Part shown: positions 1 to 47,812 of the stretch, piece by piece
Numbering within the stretch: the stretch's first letter is position 1
Layout of the letters: each line of letters begins with the position of its first letter
Origin: an uncultured Bacteroidota bacterium
GTDB lineage: Bacteria; Bacteroidota; Bacteroidia; Bacteroidales; GCA-2748055
DNA: 64,000 nt
Direction of reading: 5' to 3'
Assembly (NCBI GenBank): GCA_963713725.1
Contig: CAVQMZ010000029.1
Coordinates: forward strand, 100,369-164,368
Notes under the pieces: model-generated
What the model saw: the letters and a program-made list of their open reading frames with translations, nothing else
Told to the model about the DNA's origin: nothing
Databases searched by the model: none
Translations under genes and position numbers: made by a program

Positions 1-1172
1 CCTGTTATAGCTTGCTTCTGAATTACCGCCCATGAGTGATATACCGTTTCTGCCGGAGCCTCGACCGGGAATCATACCAATGTTTGTAATCGTATTTCTT
101 CTTATTACAACCCGGCCTTCTTCAGAGGTCCTGATACCGTAGCTAAGGCAATCGCTTATGCTGTTTTTTTCAATATGCGCAGTACTGGCAGTAACAGAAA
201 TTCCTTCCTGTCCGCACAAGGCAATCTCACAATCCTGAATTTCGATGTTCTGGCTGTTTGAAATTTTCATCCCTGTAAAAGCAGCCATTTCAATTCTTAA
301 GCCCTGGAGGACAATTCCCATGGCCTTGTCAATATGGATCACAAAAGGCTTCGCCGAGTAGCGGATAGATTTGGAATCGGGCGGAGTTTTCGAATATAGA
401 TAAAGGCAATGCTTTTTTGATCAAAAAACCATTCCCCGTCCACATCCAGTGTTTTAATGTGCTTCTGGAAAAAATAGCCGGCCTCATCCTGACGAATCCC
501 CCGGGGCCTTTCATTAAAAAGTTTATGGTCGGTCCCTCAATGGAAGTGATCCGATAGGCAGAATAGGTCCAGACATTCTGACGCAGAACAATCTCAGCAC
601 CTGCCAGGCCCTCCGCACCGGATAACTCCGGGTCCGTATACCGATGTCAATGTGCGGGAGCTGAAATCATAAAAAGCAGCGTTTGACATTAGATCCCCAT
701 TCGGGGTGCGCCCCAGCGGCAATGATTTATTCTCACGAAGCAGCAGGGTCACATCTCTTACACCGGAGGGCAGAACTTGTTTATATACATTGGTCTGTCC
801 GGCAACCGGGGTCCATTCCCCCTCCGTGAAGCAAGCCCCCGACAAAACTGGCCGTTCTCCTTCGCCATATGCTCCAAAACTGAGCTTATTCCCTGTGATT
901 TCGAGCATTCCCTCAAATTGATCTCCACAACGGAAAAGTACGGTTCCGCCTTCCAGCATTGCCATTTGCTGATTTACTTTGTCCAGGGTAAGCCATGGTC
1001 CCGAAACACCACCGGTGTATTCAGCCGATTTTCCATCCCAGGCATCATTACCCTTACCCGATACATAATATTCAGTTGCATTTGCATTGAGTCCTCCTGC
1101 AAAGAAGAATGAGGCAAATGCAAATACGGTAGGCAATAATTTCTTCAGGATCACTTCTAATCCGGTTTTCAT
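1..1172 (-). CDS. Secreted right-handed parallel beta-helix repeat protein, paralog of 3565..5645. The 3' part runs off the window and the frame is broken as read.
   Basis: ORF 594..1172 starts with a signal peptide (MKTGLEVILKKLLPTVFAFASFFFAGG). It then matches ORF 4476..5690 (YYVSG.GNDAWDGKS.E..GGVSGPWLTLD.VNQQM..., GAYGEGERP.LSGA, LPLGRTPNGD..SN.AFY.F). Homology continues in other frames down to nt 1; nt 1-60 align with nt 4480-4538. Confidence 0.6.
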
Positions 1173-1174
1173 TA

Positions 1175-3545
1175 TTATTGTTTTAGCTTGAATGTTTCAG
1201 GATCTACCATTCCCATTTTTGATGCATCAAGTGGCTCGATACCCAGCTCCAGTGCTGGACTGCCCTCCTTGAAACTGAAATCTCCGCCCTCGGGATCTAA
1301 ATTGGGGATCTCCGAAAAGACTTGCAAGCTCAAGGCCTCCGGCCCGCGTTCTTTCAAAATGCTCCACCATCCAGTCCGGGTTTGTGGGATGATAATAGAG
1401 ATTCGAATCCATTTTGGTTTTTGATTATATCGGGGGAGGTTGTAGTTCGATCCTTGCGGGGCCTTTCATTGTGAGCATTACCTCCATCCGGATGGGGTAT
1501 AATGATATTCTTATATACCTTCGAATTGGGAACGGGAACCCATTCATAGCTTATATAACCAGAAAAAGGCACTGTTTGCGGGGCAACAATGAAATTATTC
1601 ATGATGTGATTAGTGCCCTTGGAGGCGATGCCGGCTCGAGAAGCCCCAGTTTTTATATAGAATATTGCCATATATGTGGGTTTCATGCTGGCCGTCGTCA
1701 CAGCGGATGGCAGCGGGCAGGGAGTGTTGTAAATTGTCGTGCAGATAATTATATCGTATGATATTATCCCTGCCGGCTCCGGAAACGTATATACCGTTCC
1801 CGTCCGAAAGCAACTGGACTGAATGTGATATTTCATTGTACTCAAAAAGATTGTGCCGGGAGTGGGAGTAAGGATCCCCGCTTAACCATCTTTCATATAC
1901 GGCCTGCCTGTTATTATCATCTCTGTTGCGATCTTCTCTTTGACGGTCGGGCCCTGCAGGATTCTCCCTTGGACGGTTGTCTGGCTACGCCAACATTTCT
2001 CCTGCTGCGTTCTACAGGAGCTGAATTGTAGATCTCGCTGCGGAGAACGGGCGTCCCGTCAGCATTCATCCGGCGCCCCGGCCCTGGTGGATATAAGTAC
2101 TGCGGAGTAGCCGCTGTGGTGTATAAAATTGTGGGTAATGTGGTTATAGCCACTCTGCCATGCCCAGAAACCCGGGGAACTCCAGGAAATCTCGCTGAAA
2201 TGATGAATGTGGTTATTGATAATATCGTTGTGGTGATTGAAATCTTTGGTATCGGGAGCATAGCCGTCCAAAAGAATACCAGCCTCACCCAGGTGAGCGA
2301 ATTCACAGTTTACGATACGGTTGCGCTGGGCATGCAGATCAAGGCGTATACCCGTACCGCCTGAATTGATAAACCTGCAATCGAATACCTGGGACTGCTT
2401 GGCGCCACGGAAGAGAAGCATGGCCGTAGGGCGCTCGGCCATCCCCCAGCCATGTTGTAATCCCAGCCCCATGCGGCCTTCATCGTTTGTCAGGCCCATC
2501 GATAGGCATGGGTAAAAGTAAGTCCTGCAAATGCGATTCCAACAACCGGGATATCCTCCGGAGCGTCGAAATCGATCGTGCCTTCCACCCGGATAAGTTC
2601 AGTGGTGGCCTGGTGCCAGGATTCCCCGCGGTGATCCGTCGGCTGCCGGATCGGAGGGCCACAGGTATACTTTTCTGCTCTTCGTATTTACCACCCATTC
2701 GCCCGGTTCGTCCAGTGCTTCAAGGATGTTTTCCACCCATACCGATGAGCCCGAAGGATTATGAACCCAACCAGCCAGCCTGCTGAAGCTACCCCTTGCC
2801 GATACGGAAGTTGTTGCCACAGCATTCTCTTCGTCTACAGACTCAAGCGGAACCATGGCTATGGTATATGCCCTTCCGGTTCTGGCCTGAACTTCAACAT
2901 CTTCTATGTTATCCCAGTTTTTCATGTGTCCTGGGGGGAAATGCACTGTAGTCCTGTCACCTGGTTTAGTGGGAAGGAATCCCTTGTCCCTGGCACGGTT
3001 CAAACGTCCCTTATTGTCATACAGGGTATAGAATCGACCCATACCTTCAGGCATATCGGCTACCCACACCTTACCCGAGGCATTCAGGGGCAATTCGGCT
3101 GGTGCCGGATCCAGGATTTCCCAGCGTGTGACCGGTAATCCCGGCACTTAGAACCGGGGCTTCACCGGGGTATGCAGCTATGGTCAGGTGGGCAGGAAGG
3201 ATATCTCCTGCACCCGCTTCTTCGGAAAACTCATTTTCAACTTCAGCTAAATGAACCATCATCTAAACCGAGGACCAGGGTCTCATTCAATTGATGACGC
3301 CCTTCCCTCAGGTAGATTACAGCCGGATGAGAATTGCCTGATTCGCGGAGGTTTCTTAACTGGTTTACTGCTCGCGGAAGCGAAGCATATGGCTTGGTGA
3401 TACTGCCATCGGCCATATCGTCACCTTCGACGGCAACATAAATCTTTATCGGTTTCTGATGAACGCAGCCTGAAAATAGAACCATGAAAATAAGGAGCAA
3501 AAGGGCAATGCTTTTGGCTGCAACTAATGCAGAGTTGTTTTTCAT
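1175..3545 (-). CDS. Parallel beta-helix repeat lipoprotein (~790 aa if repaired), candidate glycanase or lyase. Split into at least 6 ORF fragments as read.
   Basis: N-terminus in ORF 3243..3545 has a lipoprotein-type signal (LFSGC) followed by KIYVAVEGDDMADGSITKPYASLPRAV. Colinear fragments are 2599..3147, 2059..2499 (NHIHHFSE..., HNFIHHSGYSA beta-helix-type repeats), 1610..1813 (DGNGIYVSGAGRDNIIRYNYLHDN) and 1227..1412. C-terminus in 1175..1357 reads DPEGGDFSFKEGSPALELGIEPLD. Confidence 0.6.
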
Positions 3546-3564
3546 AATTGTTACTTATTTCATG

Positions 3565-5645
3565 TTATTTCTTAAAAAGTACGACCGATCGCCAGGGGGC
3601 TATGCTTACAGAACCTGACACTGCATTTCCATGGGGATCCACAAATGCCCCTGCAGGGAGAGTGAAAGTAAGCGGCTTGTCCGAATCATTGTAAATGAGC
3701 CGGATAAAATCATCCGGTGCTGTCGATTCATCTGCCATGACCGGTGCATCGAGGTTGCCACTTGCATAAGGTCGTGCCTCATCCCATTCAGCTGCTGAAG
3801 CATACCATTGTTCAAAGGCCGGCCGGCCTGGATTACAGTTCCTTTGGAGCTCATAAATGACCTTTGATCCCTTGTAGGGCATGGCGCATACATTATTTTT
3901 AAACAGCCCCTGGTTTTCCACATCGCATTGCTCGGTCTCTTTCAGTGAGAAGCAGGTCATCGCCCCATAGTTGGCTATGGAGTTTTCAGCATCGGTGCAG
4001 ATAATGATGTTCTCTTCAAAACGATTCCCGGACATGGATGGGGGAGAGGGCTCACCGGGCGGACGGTCATAGGGATCGCGATCCAGGGTTGTGATTCCTG
4101 CGCCTCTGACCAGCAGGGTGTTACCCAGGAACAGGTTGTCCAGGGAATTAAAATTGATATGGATCCCCCGGTCGGGACCCCTGTTGACCTGGGGAAAGGA
4201 GATGGTGTTGTTGCGGATAACGAGATTCAGGGTTCCCCTGTCACACTGTATGCCCGTTGTGAAGGGTACTTCCATATCTGCAATGGTATCACCCAGTCCA
4301 ACCGTGTTGGGCACTCCGTTCAGAATGATATTTTCCTCTACCACACTACCCAGCTGATCATCGTGGGTATAGATGGCTCCCCCGTCAAAAGCCACCAGGT
4401 TGTAATTGTCAATGACGTTTCTGCTGATCTTGTTTCCTCCACCCAGATGCTGGATACCCAGGTACCCAATATTGCTCAGCCTGTTATAGCTTGCTTCCGA
4501 GTTCCCCCCATCAGGTATATCCCGTTCCTGCCAGAGCCACGACCGGCAATCAGCCCGATGTTCGAAATATTATTTCTTGTGACTACCACCCGGCCTTCTC
4601 CGCCTGTGCGTAGGCCGGCACTGAAGCAATCGCTGATGGTGTTATTTTCAATACATGCAGAACTGGCCTCCACACGAATGCCCATCTCTCCACACCATGC
4701 GATCTCACAATCGCGCACAGCAATAAGTTGACTGCTTTCAATCATTATCCCGGTCGAAACAGCCGATGCAATCCGTAATCCATCCAGGGTGACAGTACTG
4801 GAGTTCTCGATGTTCACTACAGCCGGACTGGCTGAATAAGCGTAGTCTGAGGCATTCGGTTTTTCTTCGGAGAAGAGAAAGAGTATGTGCTTTTCATTAT
4901 CGAAAAACCATTCTCCGTCCATATCCAGTGTATTTATATGTTTCTGAAAGAAATACCCGGCCTCCTGAAGATTTTCGTCTCCTTTTTTCGGCGTAGGTCG
5001 TTGATTATTGCGAATGTTTACAACAGTCCCTTCAACTGAGGTGACCGGATAGGGGTCATACCTCCACACATTCTTGCGCAGGATGACCTCCGCACCAGCC
5101 AGCCCTTCCGCACCGCTCAGTTCCGGGTCGAATAGCTGAGTAAAGGTCCGGTGGCTGAAAGTGTAAAAAGCATCGTTGCTCAGGATATCCCCGTTGGGAG
5201 TGCGGCCAAGTGGGAGGGAGGTGCTACCGCGCATCAGCAGGGTCACATCCTGCACATCCTCAGGCAGAGAATGTTGATATACATTTTTCCGCCCAGCTGC
5301 GGGAGACCAGTCCCCCGTCAGGGTCCTGGCCCCTGACAGAATGGGTCGCTCACCCTCTCCGTACGCGCCGATCCTGATGTTCGATCCTTTTATCTCAAGC
5401 ATTCCTTCGAAGACATCGCCCCGGCGGAAGTGTATGTACGCCCCTTCAGGAAGGGTCATTTGCTGGTTTACCCTGTCCAGCGTAAGCCAGGGTCCCGATA
5501 CACCACCAATGAATTCAGGCGATTTTCCATCCCAGGCATCATTGCCGGCACCGGATACATAATAGTCTACTGCAGCTGAATCTTGCCATCCCGCAAAGAG
5601 AAGAGCAAGCACGAATGCCAATGGCATTATTTTTTTCTGGATCAT
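3565..5645 (-). CDS. Secreted parallel beta-helix repeat protein (~690 aa), with one frame break at a C6 run.
   Basis: ORFs 4476..5690 and 3565..4395 are colinear. A signal peptide starts at the internal Met (MIQKKIMPLAFVLALLFAG). Repeated N.I..C / NN.I.. strings are present (IENNTISDCFSAGLR, VTRNNISNIGL, VIRNNTISF, LFLGNTLLV). The frame switch maps to the C-run 4504..4509 (see findings). Confidence 0.7.
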
Positions 5646-5743
5646 AATGGAGTGTTCGTTGGTTAGTATCGTGCCAATAAAAGTATTCAATCATCAGCCA
5701 AGGCAATTGCTCCAATCCTCCAAATCCTTGTCGAAATCTGCTC

Positions 5744-7036
5744 TTAGCGAATAAGTTCTTTAACTTCCCGCATGACCTGCAATGCTTTTTCGCCAACTGT
5801 TCCATCCTGGTAAATGGACATATTAATGGTGACTGCTCCTCCATTTTCCATACAGGCTTTTATGTATGAACTCAATTCTTCCGAGGTAAATTTTGGATCT
5901 TTTATTTCTCCTGCATCTTCCTACTCCCCACGAAAACTTCTCCATGGTTAGCAGAACATGATATGGCAGGTTTGGAGATATACCGTTTTTCATATATCCA
6001 TTTACCGGAGGAGCTATTGGATGTTGCACTTCGCCGGCCCAGTAATCCTGCCATGGTGAAGCTTCTTGCCAGTAAAAAGCGTTAAGGCAAATGATTCTAT
6101 CCTTGTTTCCAACCTTTGCCGCATTGAAAAAACTCTTCAAAAGGTATCTTGAGGATCATCGTATCGAACCAATAACCCGCAATCTTATCTTTGTAACGTA
6201 TGCCCAATTCCGGCAGAATATCCTTAAAGTTGGCAACGAAGGCTTGCACTATTTCAGGTGTTATTTCCACTCTCTTGGGATAATTAAATGCCAGCGGACC
6301 ATTGATATAGCAGATTAAACGAATGTCTCTTCTCATTGAGTGCATTGGCTAATTCTTCAATTAAATCGCGTCTGGTAGTCTGGCCGGGATGAATACGCTC
6401 CCAGCTGTCAATTGGAGCCGGACAATAGGATTCGGCATGACCAATGGGAAAAATCACATAACCTGCTCCGGTTTCTTCAATCATGTTGGCAAATTTTTCC
6501 ACATCGAAATCATTAATCGCCTCTTCATATGATTTGCGGGAACCATCGCGTTGTGGAGTTCCTGAAGTCCAGTGGAACATCAAGCCGTACCCGGTTTCTA
6601 TCAGCCAGTCGACACTTGCCCTCGCATTTTTTGCCCGAGCCTCTTCTGCTGCTATCATTTCCTTTTTTGAAACAGGCAGCAATTCAATCCCGCGAATATG
6701 GAATAACACCTCTTCTCTTTCAATACCGGATGTGGAGACGGTAATTATCTGTTTACCGGCTTCTAATGGAATTGAACCTGATAATTGTTTTCCTTTCAAA
6801 ATTCAGAGCTTCCTTGATTTTGAAATTCTCACCACCCGGGAATGGACCTGAAGTTGTAAATATGGTAAAATCTGCTTGCCTACCTCCTGCTTCTATAGTG
6901 ATTTTTGTTCCATCACCTGCTTCGCTTACATTTGCAGTAAGATAAACTTCGTACTCATCTTTTTCAGGGACTTCCACTTCCCATCTTAGCGAAGCATTGC
7001 CTGTCCATTTGGTATATTTCCGCCTCTAATCGGCAT
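5744..7036 (-). CDS. Divergent GH29-like (alpha-L-fucosidase superfamily) protein with an N-terminal beta-sandwich-like region. Multiply frame-broken, and the start is uncertain.
   Basis: Colinear fragments are 6753..6977, 6284..6799 (YGLMFHWTSGTP..., DVEKFANMIEETGAGYVIFPIGHAESY), 6097..6345 (KIAGYWFDTM) and 5823..6140. The C-terminus ACMENGGAVTINMSIYQDGTVGEKALQVMREVKELIR ends at stop 5744..5746. The GH29 motifs HWG, KHHDGF and WFD are only partly kept. No clean start or signal peptide was found. Confidence 0.4.
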
Positions 7037-10852: not shown

Positions 10853-10856
10853 TTGT

Positions 10857-13587: not shown

Positions 13588-13757
13588 GGTATCTAATTTA
13601 TTTCTTAATACCCAACTTGAGAGCAGGGCTGCCAGGTTGATTACCGCATCCCGGGAAGACAAGTATGGAAAAAAGTAGAATACAAACAATTCCTTTGAAT
13701 TTGAAGCAGGCAAAATGAATTTTCATAATCAGATTTGAATTGGATTTTAGCTCCGCA

Positions 13758-39778: not shown

Positions 39779-40837
39779 TTATTGACCGGTCCAGTTATTA
39801 ATTTTCAGAACAGCACCGGTTCCCAATTCGCGTTCATTCCTGGCCAGGGCCATAAAGAGGTATTCAGGTTCACCATTTTTCCACAGGATATGCGCCCTTT
39901 CAAACCTGAGGATGGGCTCGTCGAAATAGAAGGCGTTGGTTTGAATAGCTATCTCGGGTTTCTCCCAATTCACACCGTTCTCAGATTCATAGATTAAACC
40001 GGGTCGCCATCCTCCTATTCGCACCGTATCGGGATCGGAGGGGGTAGCTGTATAAGTGCTGGCCACATCCATCCTGTCTTCCAGGATCATGTAATATTTC
40101 CCCCTGTAAATGAAGTTGTATGAGTCTTCTACATCCAGGCCAGCCTCCACATAGCTGATCATAGGGTTGTCGGGATGAGGTGTATAAGGACCCTCGATTT
40201 TGTCCGAGCTGGCCAGTGAGATGGTTCGCAGGTATGGATCATCAGGTTGATCGGAAACAGTCTTATAGTAGATCCTGTATTTTCCCTCCAGGTCTTTATG
40301 AAAGGAGGGGTTCGAGGCATGGAGACAATCGAAGCTTCCTGGTATAAAAGAAGGGGCAAGGACCGGATTATAGGGACTCTCCACCCAGGGTCCGTCCAGT
40401 GAGGCGGATGTGGCTAATCCAACCTGTTGATTCATCCTGGGCAGGGACCTCTCCTTATAGGCGTATACCATAACATACAATCCATCTAGCTGGTTGATCT
40501 GAGGATTGTAGTAGCTAATGGTATCGTTCTGGAAAACTGTATCGAGCAAAGTATAAGGACCCTCCGGTCGATCGGCTATCATATGCACGATCTGGGCGTT
40601 TACCAGCCAGTCGCCATCGCTGGGCCAACGACCGACAAAAAGATGAACCCTGCCCTGCTTATCATAGATGGGAGCCATATCCCAGTTTGCCCACTCGGGA
40701 TCATCCAGGATTCGCTGACCGGCTTCAAGGGACTTGCAGAAATCGGAAACCTTCATTTGATCATCGGAACATGAATATCCCAGAGCAAAAACAATGGGGA
40801 TGATCAGCAAGAGGGATTTGTTGAGTATTAATTTCAT
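39779..40837 (-). CDS. Lipoprotein with a five-bladed beta-propeller GH-like signature (GH43/GH117-clan-like). Family uncertain.
   Basis: Intact 352-aa ORF with lipobox ALGYSC. It has repeated blade-like strings (GRVHLFVGRW, DGLYVMVYAY, SASLDGPWVESPYNPVL, GKYRIYYKT, SSDKIEGPYTPHPDNPMI, GKYYMILEDR). The call rests on pattern resemblance only. Confidence 0.35.
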   Translation of the reverse strand: MKLILNKSLLLIIPIVFALGYSCSDDQMKVSDFCKSLEAGQRILDDPEWANWDMAPIYDKQGRVHLFVGRWPSDGDWLVNAQIVHMIADRPEGPYTLLDTVFQNDTISYYNPQINQLDGLYVMVYAYKERSLPRMNQQVGLATSASLDGPWVESPYNPVLAPSFIPGSFDCLHASNPSFHKDLEGKYRIYYKTVSDQPDDPYLRTISLASSDKIEGPYTPHPDNPMISYVEAGLDVEDSYNFIYRGKYYMILEDRMDVASTYTATPSDPDTVRIGGWRPGLIYESENGVNWEKPEIAIQTNAFYFDEPILRFERAHILWKNGEPEYLFMALARNERELGTGAVLKINNWTGQ

Positions 40838-40972: not shown

Positions 40973-42268
40973 TCAGCTTACCGGTTTGTGAGTTTTAATA
41001 TAATCCGGATCAATAATGATACCCAGTCCTGATCCTTCGGGGGCCTTTATCTTGCCATCAATACTTTCAAATGGTCCTGCCTTACTTTCCACCGGAATAG
41101 TTGTTCCATTGGCATCATAGGTTTGGAAGGTCTTAAATTCGTGGTATTTGTCGGCATTCGGGCATACAGAGACCATATGAATCAGGTAAAGGAATCCCAG
41201 TCCCCCGCCTGAAATATGCGGCGAGGTCCTGATCCCTGCGGCTTCTGCCATCCGGGCGACCTTCATGGAACGGATCATACCACCATTGTAAAACAGGTCG
41301 GGCATGATTACCCCGAAAGCATGGTTGCCGATCAGCCAGCGGAAAACCCGTTCGCTGAATTCCTCTTCTCCGCCCGCCATGGTTATATTCAGGGTCCGGG
41401 CTATCTGGGCCTGCTCCTCGTACCAGGTCCACGGAACAGGCTCCTCATACCAGTAATAGTTGTATTCTTCAAGCATCCGGCCGATTCGCAATGCTTCCTT
41501 CACATCATAGCTGCCGTTCCCGTCAATCATCAGGACCATATCGTCGCCAAAAAACTCACGGGCCATTCGGATCAGTTTTTCTGTCCGCCCCGGTGCATTT
41601 TCATGATTAAGGCCCAGGTTATCACCACTTCCTGCCCGTACCTTTATCGCTTTAGATCCGATCTCCTCGTTATCCTGTCTCATCAGTTCCAGGGATTCCT
41701 CCGGTTCAAGGGTGCGAAATTCACTTAAGCGATGCCCCAGATAAATCCCGATCTCAGGATTTTCAAGCTCCCCCAGTAGTCGTCCGGCTGGTTTATCGGC
41801 AATAATCCCAAGCATATCCAGGATGGCAAATTCAATACCCGCGATTTGCACGCATAGCGGCACACCCTGGTTTTTCACAGGTCCCTCTGCAGCATGGAAT
41901 ATCAGATTGTCGAGATCACGTGCATCTTTTCCAAGGAACATCCTCTGAAGGAGGTTGGTAAACATGGGATAAGAGTTCCTGGCAATAAAGGGATGCCCGA
42001 TGGAGATTCCCTCAGCACCATCCCTGGAACGCACCCGGTAAATTGTGTTGTTCCTGTCTCTCAGTAATTCCAGCGATTCGATGATCACCGGGTCGGGAAA
42101 AAGTTCCCTTCTCAAAACGGGTTTAGCCAGAGCTGCGTCAAGTGCGGAGTAGTCCGGGGGACCGCAATCACTCTCTCCGGCTGGATTGCAGGATGTCAGG
42201 GGAAAAAAAGCTGATGCTCCGCCGATGGCGGCAGCGCTTGTTAAAAACTGTCTTCTGTTGGTACGCAT
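40973..42268 (-). CDS. Enolase-superfamily (mandelate racemase / muconate lactonizing enzyme-like, acid-sugar dehydratase-like) protein with a twin-arginine signal and lipobox.
   Basis: The start is taken at the internal Met, MRTNRRQFLTSAAAIGGASAFFPLTSC (RRxFL Tat motif plus LTSC). Upstream ORF residues overlap the sulfatase 3' end and look non-coding. The MR/MLE-type metal-ligand pattern is MLMIDGNGSY, YYWYEEPV, MAGGEEEF, with a later PHISGGG. Confidence 0.7.
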   Translation of the reverse strand: MRTNRRQFLTSAAAIGGASAFFPLTSCNPAGESDCGPPDYSALDAALAKPVLRRELFPDPVIIESLELLRDRNNTIYRVRSRDGAEGISIGHPFIARNSYPMFTNLLQRMFLGKDARDLDNLIFHAAEGPVKNQGVPLCVQIAGIEFAILDMLGIIADKPAGRLLGELENPEIGIYLGHRLSEFRTLEPEESLELMRQDNEEIGSKAIKVRAGSGDNLGLNHENAPGRTEKLIRMAREFFGDDMVLMIDGNGSYDVKEALRIGRMLEEYNYYWYEEPVPWTWYEEQAQIARTLNITMAGGEEEFSERVFRWLIGNHAFGVIMPDLFYNGGMIRSMKVARMAEAAGIRTSPHISGGGLGFLYLIHMVSVCPNADKYHEFKTFQTYDANGTTIPVESKAGPFESIDGKIKAPEGSGLGIIIDPDYIKTHKPVS

Positions 42269-42299: not shown

Positions 42300-43922
42300 C
42301 TACTTCCCAACAGTAATCTGTTTAACAATTTTTTCTCTTTGAGTCTCCCACAGGGATACCAGCTCTTCCAGCTTCTCCGGATTTTCAGTGGCCAGGTTAT
42401 GGCATTCACCCCGGTCCACCGACAGGTCATATAATTCCCAGTCACCATCCTCCTCGATGGTGGCAATTTTCCAGTTTTCATGCCGCAATGCCTTCTTTTG
42501 CTCGTGGTTCCAAAAGATGGGCGGCCTTTCGCTCAGGGCATCCTCCTTTAGAAAGGGGACCAGGCTGATCCCGGGGGCTTCAAATTGTCCATCCAGTTCG
42601 GCCGGGTCACCCCCGGCCAGCTCAAGCAGGGTGGGGGCAATATCGATAATGTGTGCAGGCATGTTTCTGAAGCTGTTTTCTCCACGGATGCCTTTGGGCC
42701 AGTGAACCACAAGAGGGGTGGCTATCCCGCCCTCATGCAACCATGTTTTGTGCAGTCTGAAGGGGGTATTGGCAGCAGTGGACCATCCGGGACCCAGACA
42801 GATATAAGAATCTGCCGATCCAGGAACAGAACCGATGGTATGTTTGTCTGCCCGGTTCATTTGCTCGGTACTGGCTCCATTGTCGGAGCAGAAAAAGATA
42901 ATGGTGTTGTCCAGATAGCCCAGATCCTTGAGCGTATTCACATATCGACCTATCTCCCTGTCCATTCGGGTAATCATGGCTGCATGAATGGCCATTTTAA
43001 CGGCCTGAAACTCCTGCTGTTCCGGGGATAGGTCATCCCATGGGATGGCGCGTCCTGTTTCTGCCGGATCAATCTGACTGACAAGTTCTTCCGGTGTAAG
43101 GTTCCAGGGTGCATAGCGTTCAGGCTCCAGGGGGTATATCTCCTGGGCCTCAAAACCCATTACCTCCCTGTTTTCTGCCCTGTATTTTCTTACTTCATCC
43201 CATCCCAAAAGGAATTCCTCCCGGTACATATCAATATCCTTTTGCATGGCCTGCAAAGGGAAGTGAGGTGCAATAAAGGCAATGTATTCAAAAAAGGGCT
43301 CGCTTGGCTTTTTTTCGTGGTGTTCCTTCAGGTATTTAATGGCATGATCCACAATGTCTACAGAAGCTTCGTATTCAGAACCGGTCCCGGGAAGGGCGAT
43401 GGAATCTCCGTCTTCAATCAGGATTTTCGGACGAAGGTGACGTCCGTCTTCGGTCCTGTAAGAATGGTCAAAACCAACTTCGGTGTGACTCAAAACGCGG
43501 TATTCGGGAGCTCTTCTGAAGATATGCCATTTTCCAGAGTGGTAAGTGCTGTAACCATGCTCTTTCAGGAGGGCAGGTAACCAGGTTTCATTGACAGGTG
43601 CGAAAAGACCGGCAGTAAAGTCCACTCCCTGTATGGGATCGGATAAAACCTGGTGAGGATAGTACCCCGAAAGTAAACTGGTCCGAGTGGGCCAGCAGCG
43701 TCCCGTATTATAAAAATTGGTAAAGCGAAGTCCCTTTCTGGCTAAAGCATCAACATTCGGGGTTTCAATAATTTCGGCACCATAAGAACCCAGGTCCGAA
43801 TGGCCCATGTCGTCGGCCAGGATGAAGACAATGTTTGGTTTTTCCAATTCATTGGGAGTACACCCATTTATTGCAAATATACCCATCATGGCAAGAGTCA
43901 GCAGGCTCAGTTCTTTTCTCAT
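42300..43922 (-). CDS. Sulfatase (Cys-type, CWPTR variant), lipoprotein.
   Basis: Intact 540-aa ORF with signal and lipobox (FAINGC), NIVFILADDMGHSDLGSYG, GRCWPTRTSLLSGYYPHQ, GKWH, CSDNGAS and GGIATPLVVHWPKGI. Confidence 0.9.
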   Translation of the reverse strand: MRKELSLLTLAMMGIFAINGCTPNELEKPNIVFILADDMGHSDLGSYGAEIIETPNVDALARKGLRFTNFYNTGRCWPTRTSLLSGYYPHQVLSDPIQGVDFTAGLFAPVNETWLPALLKEHGYSTYHSGKWHIFRRAPEYRVLSHTEVGFDHSYRTEDGRHLRPKILIEDGDSIALPGTGSEYEASVDIVDHAIKYLKEHHEKKPSEPFFEYIAFIAPHFPLQAMQKDIDMYREEFLLGWDEVRKYRAENREVMGFEAQEIYPLEPERYAPWNLTPEELVSQIDPAETGRAIPWDDLSPEQQEFQAVKMAIHAAMITRMDREIGRYVNTLKDLGYLDNTIIFFCSDNGASTEQMNRADKHTIGSVPGSADSYICLGPGWSTAANTPFRLHKTWLHEGGIATPLVVHWPKGIRGENSFRNMPAHIIDIAPTLLELAGGDPAELDGQFEAPGISLVPFLKEDALSERPPIFWNHEQKKALRHENWKIATIEEDGDWELYDLSVDRGECHNLATENPEKLEELVSLWETQREKIVKQITVGK

Positions 43923-43933: not shown

Positions 43934-45346
43934 TTAAGGTAATGAATTTTCTTTTAGATTTTGTCCTGGTGCCATGTAATTAAAATCCCCGTTATCAATT
44001 ACCAGCACCCAGTCTACTCCGGATACCGGAACCCTGAAGTTTTCCCTGACTTCGCCTTCAACATCTTTGCCCGGTGTGGCTTCTCCGGTGCGAGGGTTGA
44101 ACCACCAGGTTCTGAAGACGTCTCCTTCAATTCTGGAAAAATCAATGATCACATCCGAATTCGAAGGAAGGTAAATGAAAGCATAACCCTTGCCCTGTGT
44201 TGCAGCTATATGATCGATGCTTCCACCTGCATATCCCCAGATAATGGACTGGTCGGGTACCCTATCCAGCATGGGGCGTGATTCCATAAGCTGCCTCAAA
44301 TGAAGCATGTCAAATGCTCCGGGCAGGTCCATGGCTTCCTGCCAGGACATGGGTGGATAGTTGATGGCTTCCACCTTGTCTGAATAAAATTGCCAGATGC
44401 AATGATTCCCGTATGTATGCCCGTGAGCCCCTGCAAAAAGGCCCCAGTAAGCAGCGCGCCTTACGTCATCTTCACCTGATATTCCGTTTTTAGGATTCCA
44501 TCCAAAGGGATGGGATTCGTAAATGGGTTCTGCATCCATGCAGGGTTTGGGAGGAAAAAGGACATAATCAGACTCAATTACCCGGTAATTTGGGATGAAA
44601 CGGTCGCTGTGCCCTGACTGATGCATGTTAAAATCCAGCCAGTCGGCATTGTGGAAACACTCAGAAGACGACCTGGAGCCCATGGGATGAAAGGTCATCA
44701 GATGATTCTGGTCTTCCGAACGAATTCCCCTTGCCAGGGCCTCCCATACTTCCTCCACACCCAGGCAGCCACGGTCACCACCATTTATCCAGATAATATT
44801 GGGTGTGTCTTTGTATCTCTTACCCAGCCATTGTCCATAAGTATAGGCATTATCAGCATTGAAGATCAGTGGGCCATCACCCCATCTCAATTCAACCTTA
44901 TCCCCCCAGGTGGGGAGCAGGCCCATCACCAGTCCTTTGGAAGCAGCGATCTCTATCACCGAGTCCACAAAGGCAAAATAGTCCTCGTTGGGTTTTGTGG
45001 GATCCATATCCTGCAGGGGCAATTCACCATTCACCGAGGGCGTTTTGAGACCATCCAGTTCAGCAAGTAGTACAGCCTGTATCACAGTAAATCCTTTTTG
45101 TCTCCTGTTTTCCAGAAATATTTCTGCCTCTTCCAGAGAAAGTCGGTGAAAAAGCTCCCAGGCAGTTTCTCCCAGATAGAAAAAGGGATCTCCATTTTCA
45201 AATTGAAGGAAACGCTGATTTTCACTCACTATGAGTCTCCCTTTTGAAAGATCAACGGCCGGTCCTTCATGAACCAGGTTCTGAGCTTTGCCTGAAAGGC
45301 TTAAAAGTGATATTAATACAAAAACAAAGATTCGGATTACTTTCAT
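43934..45346 (-). CDS. GH140-like (DUF4038-type) putative glycoside hydrolase, secreted.
   Basis: Intact 470-aa ORF with a signal peptide. FENGDPFFYLGETAWELFHRLSLEEAEIFLENRRQKGFTVIQAVLLAE, LLPTWGDKV and PNIIWINGGD resemble the DUF4038/GH140 N-terminal TIM-barrel signature as I remember it. Confidence 0.55.
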   Translation of the reverse strand: MKVIRIFVFVLISLLSLSGKAQNLVHEGPAVDLSKGRLIVSENQRFLQFENGDPFFYLGETAWELFHRLSLEEAEIFLENRRQKGFTVIQAVLLAELDGLKTPSVNGELPLQDMDPTKPNEDYFAFVDSVIEIAASKGLVMGLLPTWGDKVELRWGDGPLIFNADNAYTYGQWLGKRYKDTPNIIWINGGDRGCLGVEEVWEALARGIRSEDQNHLMTFHPMGSRSSSECFHNADWLDFNMHQSGHSDRFIPNYRVIESDYVLFPPKPCMDAEPIYESHPFGWNPKNGISGEDDVRRAAYWGLFAGAHGHTYGNHCIWQFYSDKVEAINYPPMSWQEAMDLPGAFDMLHLRQLMESRPMLDRVPDQSIIWGYAGGSIDHIAATQGKGYAFIYLPSNSDVIIDFSRIEGDVFRTWWFNPRTGEATPGKDVEGEVRENFRVPVSGVDWVLVIDNGDFNYMAPGQNLKENSLP

Positions 45347-45437: not shown

Positions 45438-46778
45438 ATGAAAAACGCAACAATCAGAACATCTCTGTCCATCTTAATGTTGGCCTGTCTTGGTCTCAGC
45501 AGCCTTGCCCAGGAAGGCTATGTTCCCACAGCCGAAAACCTTGAAAACCGCGAGTGGTTCCAGGATAACAAATTCGGACTCTTTGTTCACTGGGGGGTAT
45601 ATTCCATTATGGGGGGAGGCGGTGACCAGGGCATCGCCGAATGGATCATGAATCAAAAGAATATCCCCGTTCATGAATATGAAAAATTGCCAGGTTTCTT
45701 TAATCCCACCCAGTTTGATGCCGCAGAGTGGGTTTCCATGGTGAAGAAGGCAGGAATGAAATACATTACCATCACCAGTAAACACCATGACGGTTTTGCA
45801 ATGTACGATTCCAAGGTAAGCGATTACAATATCGTTGATGCCACGCCCTATGGGAAGGATGTGATTGGCATGTTGAAGGAGGAGTGTGACAGGCAGGGCA
45901 TAAAACTCTTTTTTTATCATTCCCAGCTGGACTGGCACCATCCCGATTATGTGCCCCAGGGCAGAACAGGAAAGGAAATTCCGGGAAGGTCAACTGAGGG
46001 CGACTGGAACAAATACATCGATTATATGAATACCCAGCTTTCCGAGCTGTTGACCCAGTATGGTGATATCGGCGGGATATGGTTTGACGGGATGTGGGAT
46101 AAGCCCGGTGCCGACTGGCGACTGGCGGAGACCTATGCCCTGATTCATGAACATCAGCCGGGGGCGCTGATTGGGAGTAACCACCATAAAATGCCCTATC
46201 CCGGAGAGGATTTTATGATGTTTGAACGTGATCTGCCGGGCGAGAATTCCATGGGATTCAATAATACAGGAATTTCCTATGATGTGCCACTGGAGATGTG
46301 TGAGACCATGAACGGATCATGGGGTTTTAACCTTGTTGATCAGAATTATAAGTCGGTTGAGAAATTGATCCACACCATGGTCAGGGCCGCTGGTTTTGGA
46401 GCCAATTTTCTGCTGAATACAGGCCCCATGCCCAACGGGAAAATACAGCCCGAGAATGTGGATACCCTGATGGCCATCGGGCAATGGCTTGAAACTTATG
46501 GGGAAGCTGTTTACGGAACCCGCAGGGGTGCGGTGAAACCCCAGGAATGGGGAGCCCTGACTCAAAAGGGTGATGTGGTATATGTACATGTACTTAACCC
46601 GGGCGAAGGTTCCATTGAAATTGAAGGCTACCTGCCCAGGATTAAATCTGCAAAATTTTTCGATGATGGATCTAAGGTGGAGGTTAAGGTGAAAAAAGGG
46701 ACCTCAGGTTTGGTGCTTGTATTACCTTCTGAGAAAATAAAGCCAATTGATACAATTATAGAATTAACTTTAAGATAG
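45438..46778 (+). CDS. GH29 alpha-L-fucosidase, secreted.
   Basis: Intact 446-aa ORF with a signal peptide, FGLFVHWGVYSI, YITITSKHHDGFAMYDS, GKDVIGML, GGIWFDGMW, FLLNTGPMPNGKI and GQWLETYGEAVYG. Confidence 0.9.
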   Translation: MKNATIRTSLSILMLACLGLSSLAQEGYVPTAENLENREWFQDNKFGLFVHWGVYSIMGGGGDQGIAEWIMNQKNIPVHEYEKLPGFFNPTQFDAAEWVSMVKKAGMKYITITSKHHDGFAMYDSKVSDYNIVDATPYGKDVIGMLKEECDRQGIKLFFYHSQLDWHHPDYVPQGRTGKEIPGRSTEGDWNKYIDYMNTQLSELLTQYGDIGGIWFDGMWDKPGADWRLAETYALIHEHQPGALIGSNHHKMPYPGEDFMMFERDLPGENSMGFNNTGISYDVPLEMCETMNGSWGFNLVDQNYKSVEKLIHTMVRAAGFGANFLLNTGPMPNGKIQPENVDTLMAIGQWLETYGEAVYGTRRGAVKPQEWGALTQKGDVVYVHVLNPGEGSIEIEGYLPRIKSAKFFDDGSKVEVKVKKGTSGLVLVLPSEKIKPIDTIIELTLR

Positions 46779-46918
46779 GTACTAAGGTGCCTATTGTATA
46801 CTTACTTGCACTAGAAACACCAGGAGCTGGTCCCCGAGTTAGCCAGGTCTCTTCGCAAGGCCAAGCTTGAACGGAACCTGGATGAGGATAGTTGGATATC
46901 CGCCGGTATAAATATAAA

Positions 46919-47812
46919 TTAGTATTTGTTGTAGTGCATGACTCCCCCTGAGAGCTCCAGATCCTGGAAGCTGACTTCCAGATGCTCAAAATTCAGGGGA
47001 ACAGAGATGAAATAGCGTACGGCTTTTCCGTTCAGCATTGCCGGCTGCCATTCGCCTGGCAGGGCGGCGATGAGATTGACCAGAAACTGGTTCAGTTGCT
47101 GTGATCTTCCCTTCAGAGTGATTACTCCGTCCATGCTCCCGTCTTCCATGATCACCCAGGCCACCTCCACCACATCACTGATCTGAGTGAGGTCCAGGTT
47201 CGAGTTATACAGATTCTGCAGGATGTAGGTGTGAAAGAATTTTGGCCCCATTTTATACTCCGGCTCACTGTCGGCGGAATAAAAAACAGAGTCGATATAT
47301 TTATCTCCATTACTCAACCAGTTCTGATTTGAAAGCAGTTGATTGTCCTTGTAAAGAGAAAGAGATTTCAAATTACCGTTGGCATGATATTCGGTAATAA
47401 GTCCTTCCATGTGCAGGGGGAGGTATTTTGAGGAGAAGCCGGTACGCAGGACTTTCGAAACATCAGACTCGGAAAATTCATAAAGTCCGGGTTCAATCCG
47501 GGTCATCTTCCTGTAGATTTTTGTTGGGAAATATCCCTCACCCTTTTTTTTAATAAGCAGGGTACCGTCATTTTCAATATTGATCTTCTCCTGTTCAATC
47601 ATAGTCCACTTATCATCCTTTTCACCACCCGACAGGATGCTGGTTTTTATCACGTAGCGGGTATCAGATTTCGTTCTGACTTCCTTCATCATAAGGGCAT
47701 CATCTGCAAGATCTACCGGCCTGGAGTTTGCGGCGTAATAATATATCTCCTGGCCAGCCACAGCTGTGAGGATAGTATGGAAGCAAAGTAAAGCCAGAAG
47801 GATATTTTTCAC
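46919..47812 (-). CDS. Secreted hypothetical protein with a MORN/YwqK-like repeat and a TonB-C-terminal-like domain.
   Basis: Intact 297-aa ORF with a signal peptide. ITEYHANGNLKSLSLYKDNQLLSNQNWLSNG is MORN/YwqK-like. The C-terminal PEYKMGPKFFHTYILQN...VEVAWVIMEDGSMDGV...ALPGEWQPAMLNGKAVRYFISVPLNF resembles a TonB_C fold signature. This is a weak call. Confidence 0.35.
   Translation of the reverse strand: MKNILLALLCFHTILTAVAGQEIYYYAANSRPVDLADDALMMKEVRTKSDTRYVIKTSILSGGEKDDKWTMIEQEKINIENDGTLLIKKKGEGYFPTKIYRKMTRIEPGLYEFSESDVSKVLRTGFSSKYLPLHMEGLITEYHANGNLKSLSLYKDNQLLSNQNWLSNGDKYIDSVFYSADSEPEYKMGPKFFHTYILQNLYNSNLDLTQISDVVEVAWVIMEDGSMDGVITLKGRSQQLNQFLVNLIAALPGEWQPAMLNGKAVRYFISVPLNFEHLEVSFQDLELSGGVMHYNKY

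Follow-up and report, generated by a model that had tools for sequence, protein, structure and literature searches.

The window analysed here is a 64 kb stretch of DNA from an uncultured marine-sediment Bacteroidia bacterium, and all coordinates are positions within it. The first 47.8 kb (1-47.8 kb) contain the genes listed below, with the supporting evidence in brackets.

1..1172, -, right-handed beta-helix protein, N-terminal ~390 aa only (off the left edge; frameshift near 594-640)
1354..3545, -, GH141-like beta-helix lipoprotein, signal ...LFSGC (Pfam; several frameshifts)
3565..5690, -, right-handed beta-helix protein, ~700 aa, Sec signal (Pfam; one frameshift)
5823..6799, -, divergent GH29-type alpha-L-fucosidase (frameshifted; true start probably near 7080)
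7087..8097, -, carbohydrate esterase-type alpha/beta hydrolase, HGG and GxSxG (Pfam BD-FAE 1.4e-23, Abhydrolase_3 6e-21)
8033..9432, -, GH29 alpha-L-fucosidase, Sec signal (Pfam; two frameshifts)
9562..10897, -, S1 sulfatase, CSPSR at 10565-10597 (signature and translation; one frameshift)
10857..12248, -, S1 sulfatase, CSPSR at 12009-12041, Sec signal (signature, Pfam Sulfatase 3e-57)
12346..13713, -, GH168 endo-fucanase candidate, Sec signal (Pfam GHL15 1.5e-44)
13758..15134, -, S1 sulfatase, CSPSR at 14883-14915, Sec signal (signature, Pfam Sulfatase 1.9e-50)
15146..17700, -, GH168-GH29 fusion protein (Pfam; N terminus frameshifted upstream of 17233)
17766..19010, -, GH29 alpha-L-fucosidase, Sec signal (Pfam Alpha_L_fucos 7e-81)
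19016..20754, -, S1 sulfatase, CTPTR at 20509-20541 (signature, Pfam Sulfatase; two frameshifts)
20880..24944, -, type IX secretion system (T9SS) cargo A, 1354 aa (signal peptide, TIGR04183 sorting domain)
25090..25755, -, GH30 gene, N-terminal 221 aa only (Pfam Glyco_hydro_30, profile positions 2-115 of 348)
25906..30110, -, hybrid two-component system (HTCS) sensor/regulator (Pfam; two frameshifts)
30197..32044, +, S1 sulfatase, CAPTR at 30479-30511, lipoprotein, ...LASC (signature, Pfam Sulfatase 6e-59)
32063..33313, -, inner-membrane MFS permease, FucP/GluP family (Pfam MFS_1)
33335..34486, -, esterase with an N-terminal EF-hand pair (Pfam BD-FAE 1.3e-36, EF-hand_7)
34565..38567, -, T9SS cargo B, ~1330 aa (GHL15, 8jd7 and TIGR04183 matches)
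38596..39741, -, GH168 endo-fucanase candidate, lipoprotein, ...LMGC (PDB matches)
39779..40837, -, GH117/GH43-like five-bladed propeller lipoprotein (Pfam Glyco_hydro_43 8e-9)
40973..42268, -, enolase-superfamily (acid-sugar dehydratase-like) protein (Pfam MR_MLE_C 8e-45)
42300..43922, -, S1 sulfatase, CWPTR at 43665-43697, lipoprotein, ...INGC (signature, Pfam Sulfatase 9e-51)
43934..45346, -, GH140-like (apiosidase-like/DUF4038) glycosidase, Sec signal (Pfam Apiosidase 4e-116, Collagen_bind_2)
45438..46778, +, GH29 alpha-L-fucosidase, signal peptide (translation and GH29 motifs; family layout as in 17766-19010)
46919..47812, -, secreted protein with a MORN-variant repeat and a weak TonB_C-like end, at the right border; membership of the cluster uncertain

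The cluster continues past the window start, where the open frame of the first beta-helix gene reaches nt 1; a sister-strain contig extends this gene by ~850 nt, aligning to the 3565-5690 paralogue. The right-border protein scored 21 bits with Pfam TonB_C (cut-off 24.6) and had no NCBIfam match, and it is followed by an MtaA/CmuA-like gene (47926-49179) and by housekeeping genes from ~49.3 kb.

The many frameshifts in the window are assembly errors. Gene decay was considered as their source and rejected, because the housekeeping genes PPDK and PEPCK are likewise broken and because sister-strain contigs carry single-base indels at the mapped frameshifts (+C at 36658, one base fewer at 20142 and 20346). 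The latter two positions are the frameshifts of the sulfatase at 19016..20754; both frameshifts are missing from the sister-strain Illumina contigs, with one base fewer in contigs from all four sister-strain runs. Independent sister-strain Illumina contigs also span the HTCS-sulfatase-MFS-esterase junction (28575-34406) with no extra genes. Between window positions 25031 and 25149, the X2 and X5 contigs have 776 nt and the window 118 nt; ~660 nt present in the sister strains are missing from the window at the GH30 gene.

A signature scan found six C-x-P-x-R-x4-[TS]G signatures of Cys-type S1 sulfatases, exactly where the original prediction, made from the sequence alone, had listed them (three CSPSR, one each of CTPTR, CAPTR and CWPTR), and the Pfam Sulfatase profile matched all five sulfatases scanned (E 1e-19 to 1e-59). 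The PDB matches of the 10857..12248 protein were scattered across several S1 subfamilies, those of 42300..43922 were best to the arylsulfatases 7all and 1hdh, and 30197..32044 has an additional C-terminal domain. The two HGG/GxSxG esterases that had been proposed both proved to be of the BD-FAE/Abhydrolase_3 type, and the one at 7087..8097 is a candidate fucoidan deacetylase.

Five GH29-type fucosidase domains are present, which had been described as three clear and two divergent. The three clear ones stood, including that at 8033..9432, whose N- and C-terminal parts matched Pfam Alpha_L_fucos at 6e-49 and 4e-23. The supposedly divergent domain at 15146-17233 is instead a clear GH29 domain attached to GH168 (GHL15 4e-22, aa 15-239; Alpha_L_fucos 1.9e-59, aa 261-582; and Fucosidase_C), and a Pirellulaceae metagenome-assembled genome (L018) encodes this fusion as well, with 60% identity over aa 2-695. 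The domain at 5823-6799 is indeed weak in Pfam (Alpha_L_fucos 24.5 bits, cut-off 25.2), yet it matched the alpha-L-fucosidase 9pnj in the PDB (5.3e-17). Orthologues of the cluster GH29 proteins, at ~55-58% identity, were found in Mariniflexile fucanivorans, Puniceicoccaceae, Pirellulales and Pontiella, which are known or likely fucoidan degraders. The GH140-like protein matched 8t9w (5e-123) and 3kzs/5msy (6e-86), and the propeller lipoprotein had weak matches to GH117 (3p2n, 3e-4) and GH43; the sequence CSDDQ after its lipobox suggests that it is surface-exposed.

GHL15 (GH168) domains occur four times, in 12346..13713, the GH168-GH29 fusion, cargo B and 38596..39741, and an Asp/Glu pair is kept in all four. 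In 38596..39741, which is 36% identical to the GH168 protein at 12346..13713 and whose profile comes close to identity with those of solved GH168 structures (matches to 8rg3, 2e-140, to 9nhf, GHL15, 3e-140, and to the characterised endo-1,3-fucanase 8ya6, 6e-55), D173 and E243 align with the published catalytic pair (PMC12534559). Among the three beta-helix proteins, GH141-specific support was found for 1354..3545 (Pfam GH141_M 30.6 bits, cut-off 27; Beta_helix 7e-10), which has a syntenic 722-aa GH141_M/Beta_helix counterpart in locus L001; GH141 enzymes of a fucoidan cluster are endo-fucanases (PMC12786026). The protein at 3565..5690 (Pfam Beta_helix 2e-13 and NosD; a weak PDB match to 9rx2) is 61% identical to a 703-aa L001 protein that adjoins GH168, sulfatase and GH141-like genes, and it is a candidate fucan-active enzyme; its N terminus is 60% identical to ORF 594-1172 of the truncated gene.

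The two ~1350-aa proteins predicted to carry T9SS sorting domains both exceeded the TIGR04183 (type A) cut-off of 23 bits (cargo A 37.4, cargo B 30), and they are the only two of ~26 cluster proteins with this domain. Cargo A consists of a signal peptide, an ~850-aa all-beta domain (24884-22350), a CBM47-like F-type fucose lectin (22247-21834; 1e-23 to 2e-26 against PDB 3cqo and 2j22), three Ig-like repeats and the sorting domain (21098-20892). Over 96% of its length, the all-beta domain shares 51% identity with WKR37939.1, annotated "glycoside hydrolase [Wenyingzhuangia aestuarii]", which may be the published Fun187A; the AlphaFold model of the cargo A domain (pLDDT 91, all-beta) had no close PDB fold, and this domain is a probable GH187 endo-1,3-fucanase. 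A homologue of this domain in Flavicella sediminum has three T9SS-tailed GH107 (Mef1) proteins around it.

Cargo B begins with a signal peptide, a GH168 domain (about 38480-37416; GHL15 1.6e-41) and a GH174 endo-1,3-fucanase domain (about 37391-35828; 1.9e-60 to PDB 8jd7, residues 301-522), followed by CBM-like and Ig-like repeats and the sorting domain (34786-34577). Two frameshifts interrupt it, one near 36930-36948 and the other near 36658, and tblastn with W. fucanilytica AXE80_08890 and other queries found the GH174 domain spread over three frames; in P0143, which is 77% identical, the GH168-GH174 fusion is uninterrupted. The predicted depolymerisation of the glycan at the surface or outside the cell is thus supported by the endo-fucanase-type domain in each cargo protein; T9SS tails on endo-fucoidanases are already established (PMC8847386).

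The original prediction had not mentioned the four GH168 domains, the GH174, GH187-like, GH140-like, GH117/GH43-like and GH30 sequences, the three GH141-like/beta-helix proteins or the CBM47-like lectin. These are the genes most diagnostic of the cluster.

The assignment of 1-47.8 kb as a sulfated-fucan (fucoidan) utilisation cluster is strongly supported by the GH168, GH174, probable GH187, GH141-like and fucose lectin domains, which make firmer the earlier proposal of a sulfated, fucose-rich substrate that is probably also acetylated. The characterised GH168, GH174 and GH187 enzymes are mostly active against alpha-1,3 sulfated fucans from sea cucumbers, with brown-algal fucoidan as substrate for some only, and therefore the natural substrate is named here no more narrowly than as a sulfated fucan. 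Clusters of this kind are already known; this one is a new and enzyme-rich example, unusually rich in secreted backbone-cutting enzymes.

The HTCS gene encodes the full domain set expected from the prediction (Reg_prop, Y_Y_Y, HisKA, HATPase_c, Response_reg and HTH_18/HTH_AraC). The permease, proposed to be FucP-like, is assigned to the FucP/GluP family as a whole, its scores being below the cut-offs of both fucP TIGR00885 (188.7 bits, cut-off 280.4) and gluP (171.9, cut-off 202.55).

As had been noted, the outer-membrane importer SusC/SusD is absent from the window: tblastn with Pfam-validated probes, which recover SusC/SusD in other loci, gave a best E of 0.095 over the whole 64 kb, and Pfam scans of the window proteins had no Plug, TonB_dep_Rec or SusD match. 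A SusCD pair usually lies at the 5′ end of a gene array beside the regulator, and neither of the two operon-like arrays of the cluster has one there. This would fit a system that works without SusC/SusD and imports monosaccharide only, as originally suggested, and around homologues of cargo A, too, SusCD was absent within about 8-10 kb in four neighbourhoods out of five (L163/L164, L166, L167 and L168), one of the four having a TRAP transporter in its place. However, such a mode of uptake is not established, nor is a genome-wide absence of SusC/SusD, as the window cuts the cluster at its left edge. Furthermore, Sec or lipoprotein signal peptides can be read in the translations of the fucosidases, the sulfatases and the majority of the GH168 proteins, whose substrates are therefore most likely oligosaccharides met on the cell surface or within the periplasm. 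Since most of the exo-enzymes do not leave through the T9SS, oligosaccharides must still get past the outer membrane. In the homologous locus L162, SusC-SusD lie directly upstream of an HTCS, which precedes the T9SS enzyme, so that the position relative to SusCD varies among these relatives. The literature already describes a cluster that lacks SusCD and is served by a distant pair, in the Zobellia carrageenan regulon (PMC5698469). The most likely way across the outer membrane is a SusC/SusD-like TonB-dependent pair encoded outside the window, in the same cluster or distant in the same regulon.

The explanation that we prefer, with a probability of roughly 0.7, combines T9SS endo-fucanases, surface or periplasmic exo-enzymes, an MFS carrier, an HTCS and this external SusC/SusD pair; the activities, compartments and regulation are those we infer from the gene content. 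Cargo A and cargo B would leave through the T9SS and attack the polymer extracellularly, both fused domains of cargo B (GH168 and GH174) cutting the backbone and the probable GH187 domain of cargo A cutting substrate held by the fucose lectin. Oligosaccharides would pass the outer membrane through the external pair, and further endo-acting candidates (the two stand-alone GH168 proteins, the GH168-GH29 fusion and the three beta-helix proteins) would shorten fragments on the cell surface or within the periplasm. The six formylglycine sulfatases and two esterases would remove sulfate and acetyl groups, and the five GH29 fucosidases, with the accessory GH30, GH140-like and GH117-like enzymes, would strip side sugars and free fucose. 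The monosaccharide would then cross the inner membrane through the FucP/GluP-family carrier, and the HTCS would turn on the genes on detecting periplasmic oligosaccharide.

The enolase-superfamily protein at 40973..42268 scored far under the cut-offs of all NCBIfam dehydratase models, and its translation shows a twin-arginine signal and a lipobox, MRTNRRQFLTSAAAIGGASAFFPLTSC.

From nt 1 to 47.8 kb almost every gene of the window is carbohydrate-active, and from about 49.3 kb the genes are those of central metabolism or housekeeping (PPDK, PEPCK, folP, tmk, tpiA and prmA). The family content of the locus points to the utilization of a sulfated fucan or fucoidan. The host is a member of the Bacteroidota, in which it is placed by the T9SS sorting domains and the HTCS (hybrid two-component sensor/regulator). 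Its TpiA protein is 82% identical to that of a Bacteroidia MAG (the nearest genome, on a 6.8-kb contig) and about 60% identical to those of other Bacteroidales, and DNA 97–99% identical to the window was found in marine-sediment, sediment and salt-marsh metagenomes. The window has about 46–50% G+C, and no tRNA genes were found in its 64 kb. The gene at 47926–49179, which separates the glycan locus from the housekeeping genes, encodes a uroporphyrinogen-decarboxylase-fold protein resembling the MtaA/CmuA corrinoid methyltransferases, with scores far under the family cut-offs.

The original prediction had described a locus for a sulfated, fucose-rich glycan, and every item of its inventory is present. 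Six C/S-x-P-x-R sulfatase signatures carry the reported motifs, five of them with a Pfam Sulfatase (PF00884) match, and the three clear GH29 fucosidases were found at 8033–9432, 17766–19010 and 45438–46778. Both GH29-like domains that had been called divergent are present, but 15146–17233 is a clear GH29 (E value of 1.9e-59); the one at 5823–6799 is below the Pfam threshold yet scores 5e-17 against the solved fucosidase 9pnj. The two esterases are both of the BD-FAE type. The second of them (33335–34486) has an N-terminal EF-hand pair, which is unusual for a carbohydrate esterase, and no obvious signal peptide at its called start. The HTCS has its full domain set (25906–30110, minus strand). 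The permease proposed to be FucP-like does resemble FucP, and also GluP, but it is under both curated cut-offs (188.7 bits against 280.4 for TIGR00885 (fucP) and 171.9 against 202.55 for gluP), and by its sequence it is assigned to the wider FucP/GluP group. Absent from the prediction were the endo-fucanase-family domains, a fucose lectin, the β-helix genes, a GH140-like gene (PDB 8t9w at 5e-123), a GH117/GH43-like propeller and a GH30 gene.

Many genes of the locus are broken into overlapping ORFs. At least about 20 frame breaks across 48 kb, together with a GH30 gene about 660 nt shorter than in sister strains, could be read as decay, with the interrupted genes being real pseudogenes and the system non-functional, a reading to which we give next to no credence. 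PPDK (49305–52015) and PEPCK (52580–53640), housekeeping genes outside the locus, show the same kind of break, each falling into two or three ORFs that overlap. In contigs of sister strains, drawn from three or four runs, there is an additional C at 36658, a mapped frame change in the T9SS protein at 34565–38567, and one base fewer at 20142 and 20346, which are mapped frame changes in the CTPTR sulfatase; aligning one such Illumina contig to the window gives 15 gaps in 3.2 kb. Genes broken here are intact in homologues, as in the 77% identical protein P0143, whose gene is uninterrupted. Given equally frameshifted housekeeping genes and single-base indels in Illumina contigs, a pseudogenized locus was rejected, and the split genes are assembly errors. 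The assembly is indel-rich and probably a long-read one, and the gene calls therefore require frame correction. As for GH30, sister contigs from two metagenome runs have 776 nt between 25031 and 25149, where the window has 118 nt, so in those strains GH30 is complete and lies between the HTCS and the T9SS enzyme; the gap of about 660 nt in the window is either a strain-specific deletion or an assembly collapse. A homologous locus (L165, ENA contig_86124, 105 kb) is syntenic at 1–11147 with 34.5–46.8 kb of the window and is likewise rich in frameshifts; it has GH29, GH140-like, sulfatase and GH168 genes and a T9SS protein, and ends just past the orthologue of the 34565–38567 protein.

Two proteins of about 1350 aa had been predicted to be T9SS cargo, and both were found to have a type A sorting domain (TIGR04183, PF18962-type) at the C terminus, scoring 37.4 and 30.0 bits against a curated cut-off of 23, as well as N-terminal signal peptides (MKKVLASFLVILIYITSYGQ and MKKIRFSFFAILCLSSALLVNAQ). 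These cargo proteins and the GH168 domains of the locus are as follows.

T9SS cargo proteins and GH168 domains of the locus
20880–24944, minus strand: T9SS cargo A, 1354 aa, with a probable GH187 domain, a CBM47-like lectin, Ig-like repeats and the sorting domain
34565–38567, minus strand: T9SS cargo B, about 1330 aa, with GH168 at the N terminus (Pfam GHL15), then GH174, CBM-/Ig-like repeats and the sorting domain
38596–39741: GH168; PDB 8rg3 and 9nhf at about 1e-140, endo-1,3-fucanases 8ya6 and 9jof at 1e-46 to 6e-55
12346–13713: GH168, by Pfam GHL15
15146–17233: GH168 at the N terminus, fused to GH29; Pfam GHL15

The four GH168 domains match Pfam GHL15 (CAZy GH168) at E values of 4e-22 to 1e-48 and so belong by sequence to this (β/α)8 family. 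Residues D173 (FMD) and E243 (IEHF) of the 38596–39741 protein are conserved in all four paralogues, and, judged by residue number, they may be the equivalents of the catalytic D172 (nucleophile) and E243 (acid/base) of WfGH168_II (PMC12534559). In cargo B, a further domain follows GH168. Its C-terminal half matches PDB 8jd7 (‘endo-1,3-fucanase’, chain residues 301–522) at 1.9e-60, and its N-terminal half, lying across two frameshifts, was mapped to 37391–36592 with W. fucanilytica AXE80_08890 and the homologous protein P0127. From the entry name and the structure paper, we infer that 8jd7 is a GH174 structure; the published catalytic residues of the GH174 enzyme Fun174A are D119, E120 and E218. 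With a GH168 domain and then a member of the 8jd7 family, cargo B would be a double endo-fucanase (GH168 and GH174) that also carries CBM/Ig-like repeats and ends in a T9SS tail.

The N-terminal domain of cargo A (about 850 aa) matched no Pfam model, and more than 120 homologues were found, most of them T9SS-tailed. A Foldseek search with its AlphaFold model (pLDDT 91, all-β) gave no close PDB fold and only weak β-sandwich matches (OpgG/OpgD and GH36 N-domains) with a TM score of about 0.2 or lower. The domain is 51% identical over 96% to WKR37939.1, a directly submitted 1059-aa ‘glycoside hydrolase’ of Wenyingzhuangia aestuarii, the species from which Fun174A and Fun187A originate (PMC11943901). 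Fun187A, from strain OF219, is the founding member of GH187, and the size in this comparison is consistent with its 101 kDa. GH174 and GH187 have both been remarked to have β-sheet folds, and a GH174 assignment was rejected because there is no sequence similarity to 8jd7. The identity to WKR37939.1, the source species, the size, the lack of GH174 similarity and the all-β model together make the domain a probable GH187 member. Residues 900–1037 of cargo A form a predicted CBM47/F-type lectin domain that matches Pfam F5_F8_type_C as well as PDB F-lectins and the S. pneumoniae fucolectin-related protein (1e-20 to 2e-26). It carries H...R-T-D-D-C-C-K-D-R, which appears to differ by a one-residue insertion from the eel lectin motif (fucose-binding His/Arg/Arg with vicinal Cys-Cys). 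The first CBM shown to be specific for sulfated fucans belongs to CBM47. CarboxypepD_reg matches in cargo A were rejected as a SusC N terminus; they sit in the Ig-like repeats towards the C terminus, and neither a Plug nor a barrel accompanies them.

Three β-helix proteins are encoded at the left end of the window. The insertion domain in a right-handed β-helix that marks GH141 was found in 1354–3545 only, which matches GH141_M at 30.6 bits (cut-off of 27) and Beta_helix; 1–1172 and 3565–5690 (about 700 aa each) match Beta_helix/NosD alone, with no GH141-specific match. The GH141 enzymes of one fucoidan cluster are endo-1,4-fucanases (PMC12786026).

That the substrate might be another fucosylated sulfated glycan, such as mucin-type O-glycans or other host or algal glycans, was considered, because GH29 and S1 sulfatases are also typical of mucin-degrading loci and because the GH140-like, GH30 and GH117-like genes are not fucan-specific. 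The sulfatases add to this: their best PDB matches include carrageenan and GalNAc-6-sulfatases, and when subfamilies were sought by PDB similarity (taking S1_15, S1_16, S1_17, S1_22 and S1_25 as the fucoidan-type subfamilies) the matches of three of the six sulfatases scattered over S1_4, S1_7, S1_15, S1_16 and S1_19-type entries with similar scores. However, endo-fucanase is the only known activity of the families of the four GH168 domains, the GH174 domain and the probable GH187 domain, the GH141-like gene stands in a context typical of fucoidan clusters, a fucose lectin is present on a secreted enzyme, the mucin-typical GH33, GH84, GH89, GH101 and GH20 were not found by Pfam among the window proteins, and the source is marine sediment. 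A substrate other than fucan or fucoidan is therefore very unlikely, and the substrate class originally proposed is borne out.

Extracellular depolymerization of the fucan is well founded because both T9SS cargos carry endo-fucanase-type domains. This part of the original prediction stands, but the proposal that only monosaccharide is taken up is not supported in the form given, as a T9SS sorting domain was found in only 2 of the approximately 26 locus proteins. The fucosidases, the sulfatases and the remaining GH168 proteins have Sec signal peptides or lipoboxes at the N terminus, which in Bacteroidota mean the periplasm or membrane anchoring, and an HTCS normally senses periplasmic oligosaccharide. 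Enzymes of GH168 and GH174 have been published to release sulfated oligosaccharides of tetrasaccharide size and above.

The absence of a SusC/SusD outer-membrane importer pair, as had been reported, was evaluated by tblastn against the whole window with Pfam-validated SusC and SusD genes from Flavobacteriia loci. The best E value in the 64 kb was 0.095, whereas these probes did recover SusC/SusD from other loci; there was no Pfam match to Plug, TonB_dep_Rec or SusD among the window proteins, and the coding space is wholly accounted for by other genes. The locus thus has the dedicated regulator of a canonical PUL, the HTCS, and no adjacent susC/susD within 64 kb, with the cluster being cut at nt 1. 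An independent 5.8-kb Illumina contig spans 28575–34406 (HTCS start, sulfatase, MFS and esterase), and so the lack of a pair beside the HTCS is not a misassembly. Two minus-strand arrays run from 45346 to 32063 and from 30110 to below nt 1, and neither is headed by SusC/SusD. Sister-strain contigs extend about 850 nt beyond nt 1 and are still inside the β-helix gene. A homology search with the frame open at nt 1 found only a 61% relative, an exact 46-mer of the window start had no match in the genome collection, and a protein scan of JGI metagenomes for the left-edge gene gave none either. The gene at 46919–47812 was rejected as a transporter, with a weak TonB_C-like match under the cut-off and no barrel. 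Among the runs listed for the T9SS/GH168 region, none was of RNA.

Homologous neighbourhoods differ in this respect. In one relative (L162) the order is SusC-SusD-HTCS-cargo A homologue, with a second SusC-SusD further along, and in Mariniflexile fucanivorans a SusC-SusD pair is adjacent to and upstream of the GH29 orthologue, in the order HTCS, one intervening gene, SusC, SusD, GH29 orthologue. No SusC/SusD was found in 18 kb of GCA_004196275.1 (SDBV01005659.1), where GH29-GH168-GH29 precedes a cargo A homologue, and one Wenyingzhuangia genome (L166) has cargo A homologue-HTCS-sulfatase-GH95 with no pair. For L166, L167 and L168 the span without a pair is about 8–10 kb: this is 10 kb for L167 of Flavicella sediminum (VDET01000014.1), and 10 kb upstream for L168, whose contig stops about 330 nt past the gene. 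Secreted endo-fucanase genes thus often lie apart from SusC/SusD. In L167, 4568–15632 encodes four T9SS-type endo-fucanase candidates beside an AraC regulator, namely three Mef1/GH107 T9SS proteins and the cargo A homologue. The SDBV01005659.1 locus, a compact relative of the one in the window, continues after the T9SS enzyme with two more T9SS proteins, a TRAP transporter (DctPQM) and an altronate-dehydratase-like gene, which hints that the TRAP system takes up an acidic or sulfated small product in place of SusC/SusD and MFS.

The simplest reading is that import is by a SusC/SusD-like pair encoded outside the window. Such a TonB-dependent pair would carry oligosaccharides across the outer membrane; these would then be desulfated, deacetylated and trimmed to fucose, which would enter through the MFS carrier. 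This reading follows from the few T9SS tails, the Sec and lipobox enzymes, products too large for porins and periplasmic sensing by the HTCS. It is possible, though we hold it only tentatively, that the locus is an ordinary but very large PUL with SusC/SusD just past nt 1 in the same cluster. The minus-strand array does run on beyond the window start, fucoidan loci are often very large, and both the M. fucanivorans order and the two pairs flanking the cargo A homologue in L162 would fit; however, this would put the pair at the 3′ end of the array, over 30 kb downstream of the HTCS and not beside the regulator, and a syntenic β-helix/GH141 block in another locus (L001) has no SusC/SusD in 20 kb.

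A truly SusC/SusD-independent system, in which T9SS and surface enzymes yield fucose or very small products that pass general porins and then the MFS carrier, is unlikely. It would account for there being no pair in the 64 kb, none beside the HTCS and none heading either array; several of the enzymes are lipoproteins, among them one whose CSDDQ motif resembles a surface-export signal, and the SDBV01005659.1 locus with its TRAP transporter and the three loci L166 to L168 are in keeping with it. Against this, the plain Sec signals of most GH29, sulfatase and GH168 proteins indicate the periplasm, T9SS tails are rare, the HTCS class detects periplasmic oligosaccharides, GH168/GH174 products exceed porin size, the cluster is cut at nt 1, and L162 has SusC-SusD immediately upstream of its HTCS. 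It is similarly doubtful at best that the lineage as a whole degrades sulfated fucan with no SusC/SusD-type importer, its multi-catalytic T9SS endo-fucanases and surface lipoprotein exo-enzymes releasing monosaccharide outside for the MFS carrier only; if true, this would be a Cytophaga-like ‘external digestion’ of one of the most recalcitrant marine glycans. On the importer depends, in part, whether the cells keep the products to themselves (‘selfish’ uptake) or leave them available to their community.

Import by a pair encoded elsewhere has a precedent in the carrageenan regulon of Zobellia galactanivorans, a non-canonical PUL without susCD that is served by a distal co-regulated pair (PMC5698469). 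Both are large clusters for a sulfated algal glycan that combine a regulator with glycosidases, sulfatases and inner-membrane transporters and lack susCD, and in Zobellia extracellular endo-enzymes supply oligosaccharides to the importer encoded elsewhere (PMC5698469). The substrate and enzyme families differ, however, the regulator is of the AraC type in Zobellia and an HTCS here, and the distal pair is inferred for the window. The SusC/SusD-less layout is thus a known variant of PUL organization, here seen for the window. With the canonical Bacteroides-type PUL (Sus) the locus shares the HTCS, Sec and lipoprotein glycosidases and sulfatases, and co-directional operon-like arrays, whereas the susC/susD tandem is absent and extracellular cutting is by T9SS cargo, not by SusG-type surface lipoproteins; M. 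fucanivorans, with its SusC-SusD adjoining the GH29 orthologue, differs in the same respect.

The locus belongs with the fucoidan/sulfated-fucan utilization clusters already described in Wenyingzhuangia, Mariniflexile, Muricauda, Lentimonas-type Verrucomicrobiota and Planctomycetota. The clusters of Wenyingzhuangia fucanilytica, Mariniflexile fucanivorans, Muricauda eckloniae and the Planctomycetota/Verrucomicrobiota have the same enzyme mix, namely GH29, GH141, GH168 (GH174/GH187), many S1 sulfatases, esterases and GH117-like enzymes (PMC12786026, PMC11685898, PMC12534559). GH29 orthologues of the locus in these taxa are about 55–58% identical, and Wenyingzhuangia has homologues of the domains of both cargos. 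In contrast to the known clusters, neither GH107 nor GH95 was seen in this locus, one T9SS protein joins GH168 to GH174 and another protein joins it to GH29, and the host is an uncultured sediment Bacteroidia. The cargos resemble the GH107 T9SS endo-fucoidanases (MfFcnA, FFA1/2, Fhf1/2 and Mef2) in being multi-domain with Ig-/CBM-like spacers and a C-terminal sorting domain (PMC8847386), but the catalytic domains are GH168 plus GH174 and a probable GH187 in place of the GH107 that bears T9SS tails there (PMC8847386). No example of two catalytic domains in one T9SS protein was found in the literature searched. Judged from sequence, the new features are the GH168-GH174 fusion on a T9SS tail, the GH168-GH29 fusion and the concentration of endo-fucanase families in one locus.

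Few marine polysaccharides are degraded as slowly as fucoidan and related sulfated fucans, which are thought to carry carbon into sediments. To our knowledge, few fucan degraders and few backbone-cutting enzymes have been characterized. The lineage recurs in marine-sediment and salt-marsh metagenomes, and its cluster is a testable case of how sediment Bacteroidota attack fucans; with GH168, GH174, probable GH187 and GH141-like members and two natural fusions, the 48 kb also offer, in compact form, candidate enzymes for producing defined fuco-oligosaccharides.

The architecture of the GH168-GH29 fusion (15146–17700) is also present in a Pirellulaceae (Planctomycetota) MAG (L018, 10001–12740), at 60% identity over the full length, and its GH29 part has orthologues of about 55–58% identity in Verrucomicrobiota, Kiritimatiellota (Pontiella), Planctomycetota and Flavobacteriia, which suggests that fucan-degrading genes may have been exchanged between phyla. 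An enolase-superfamily protein (acid-sugar dehydratase or cycloisomerase-like; 40973–42268) has a canonical twin-arginine signal and a lipobox, and it adjoins the GH117/GH43-like lipoprotein at 39779–40837 with the CSDDQ surface-export-like motif. An exported enzyme of this superfamily is unexpected, and the pairing recalls the cytoplasmic GH117 and cycloisomerase step of anhydro-galactose catabolism, with both proteins here being exported.
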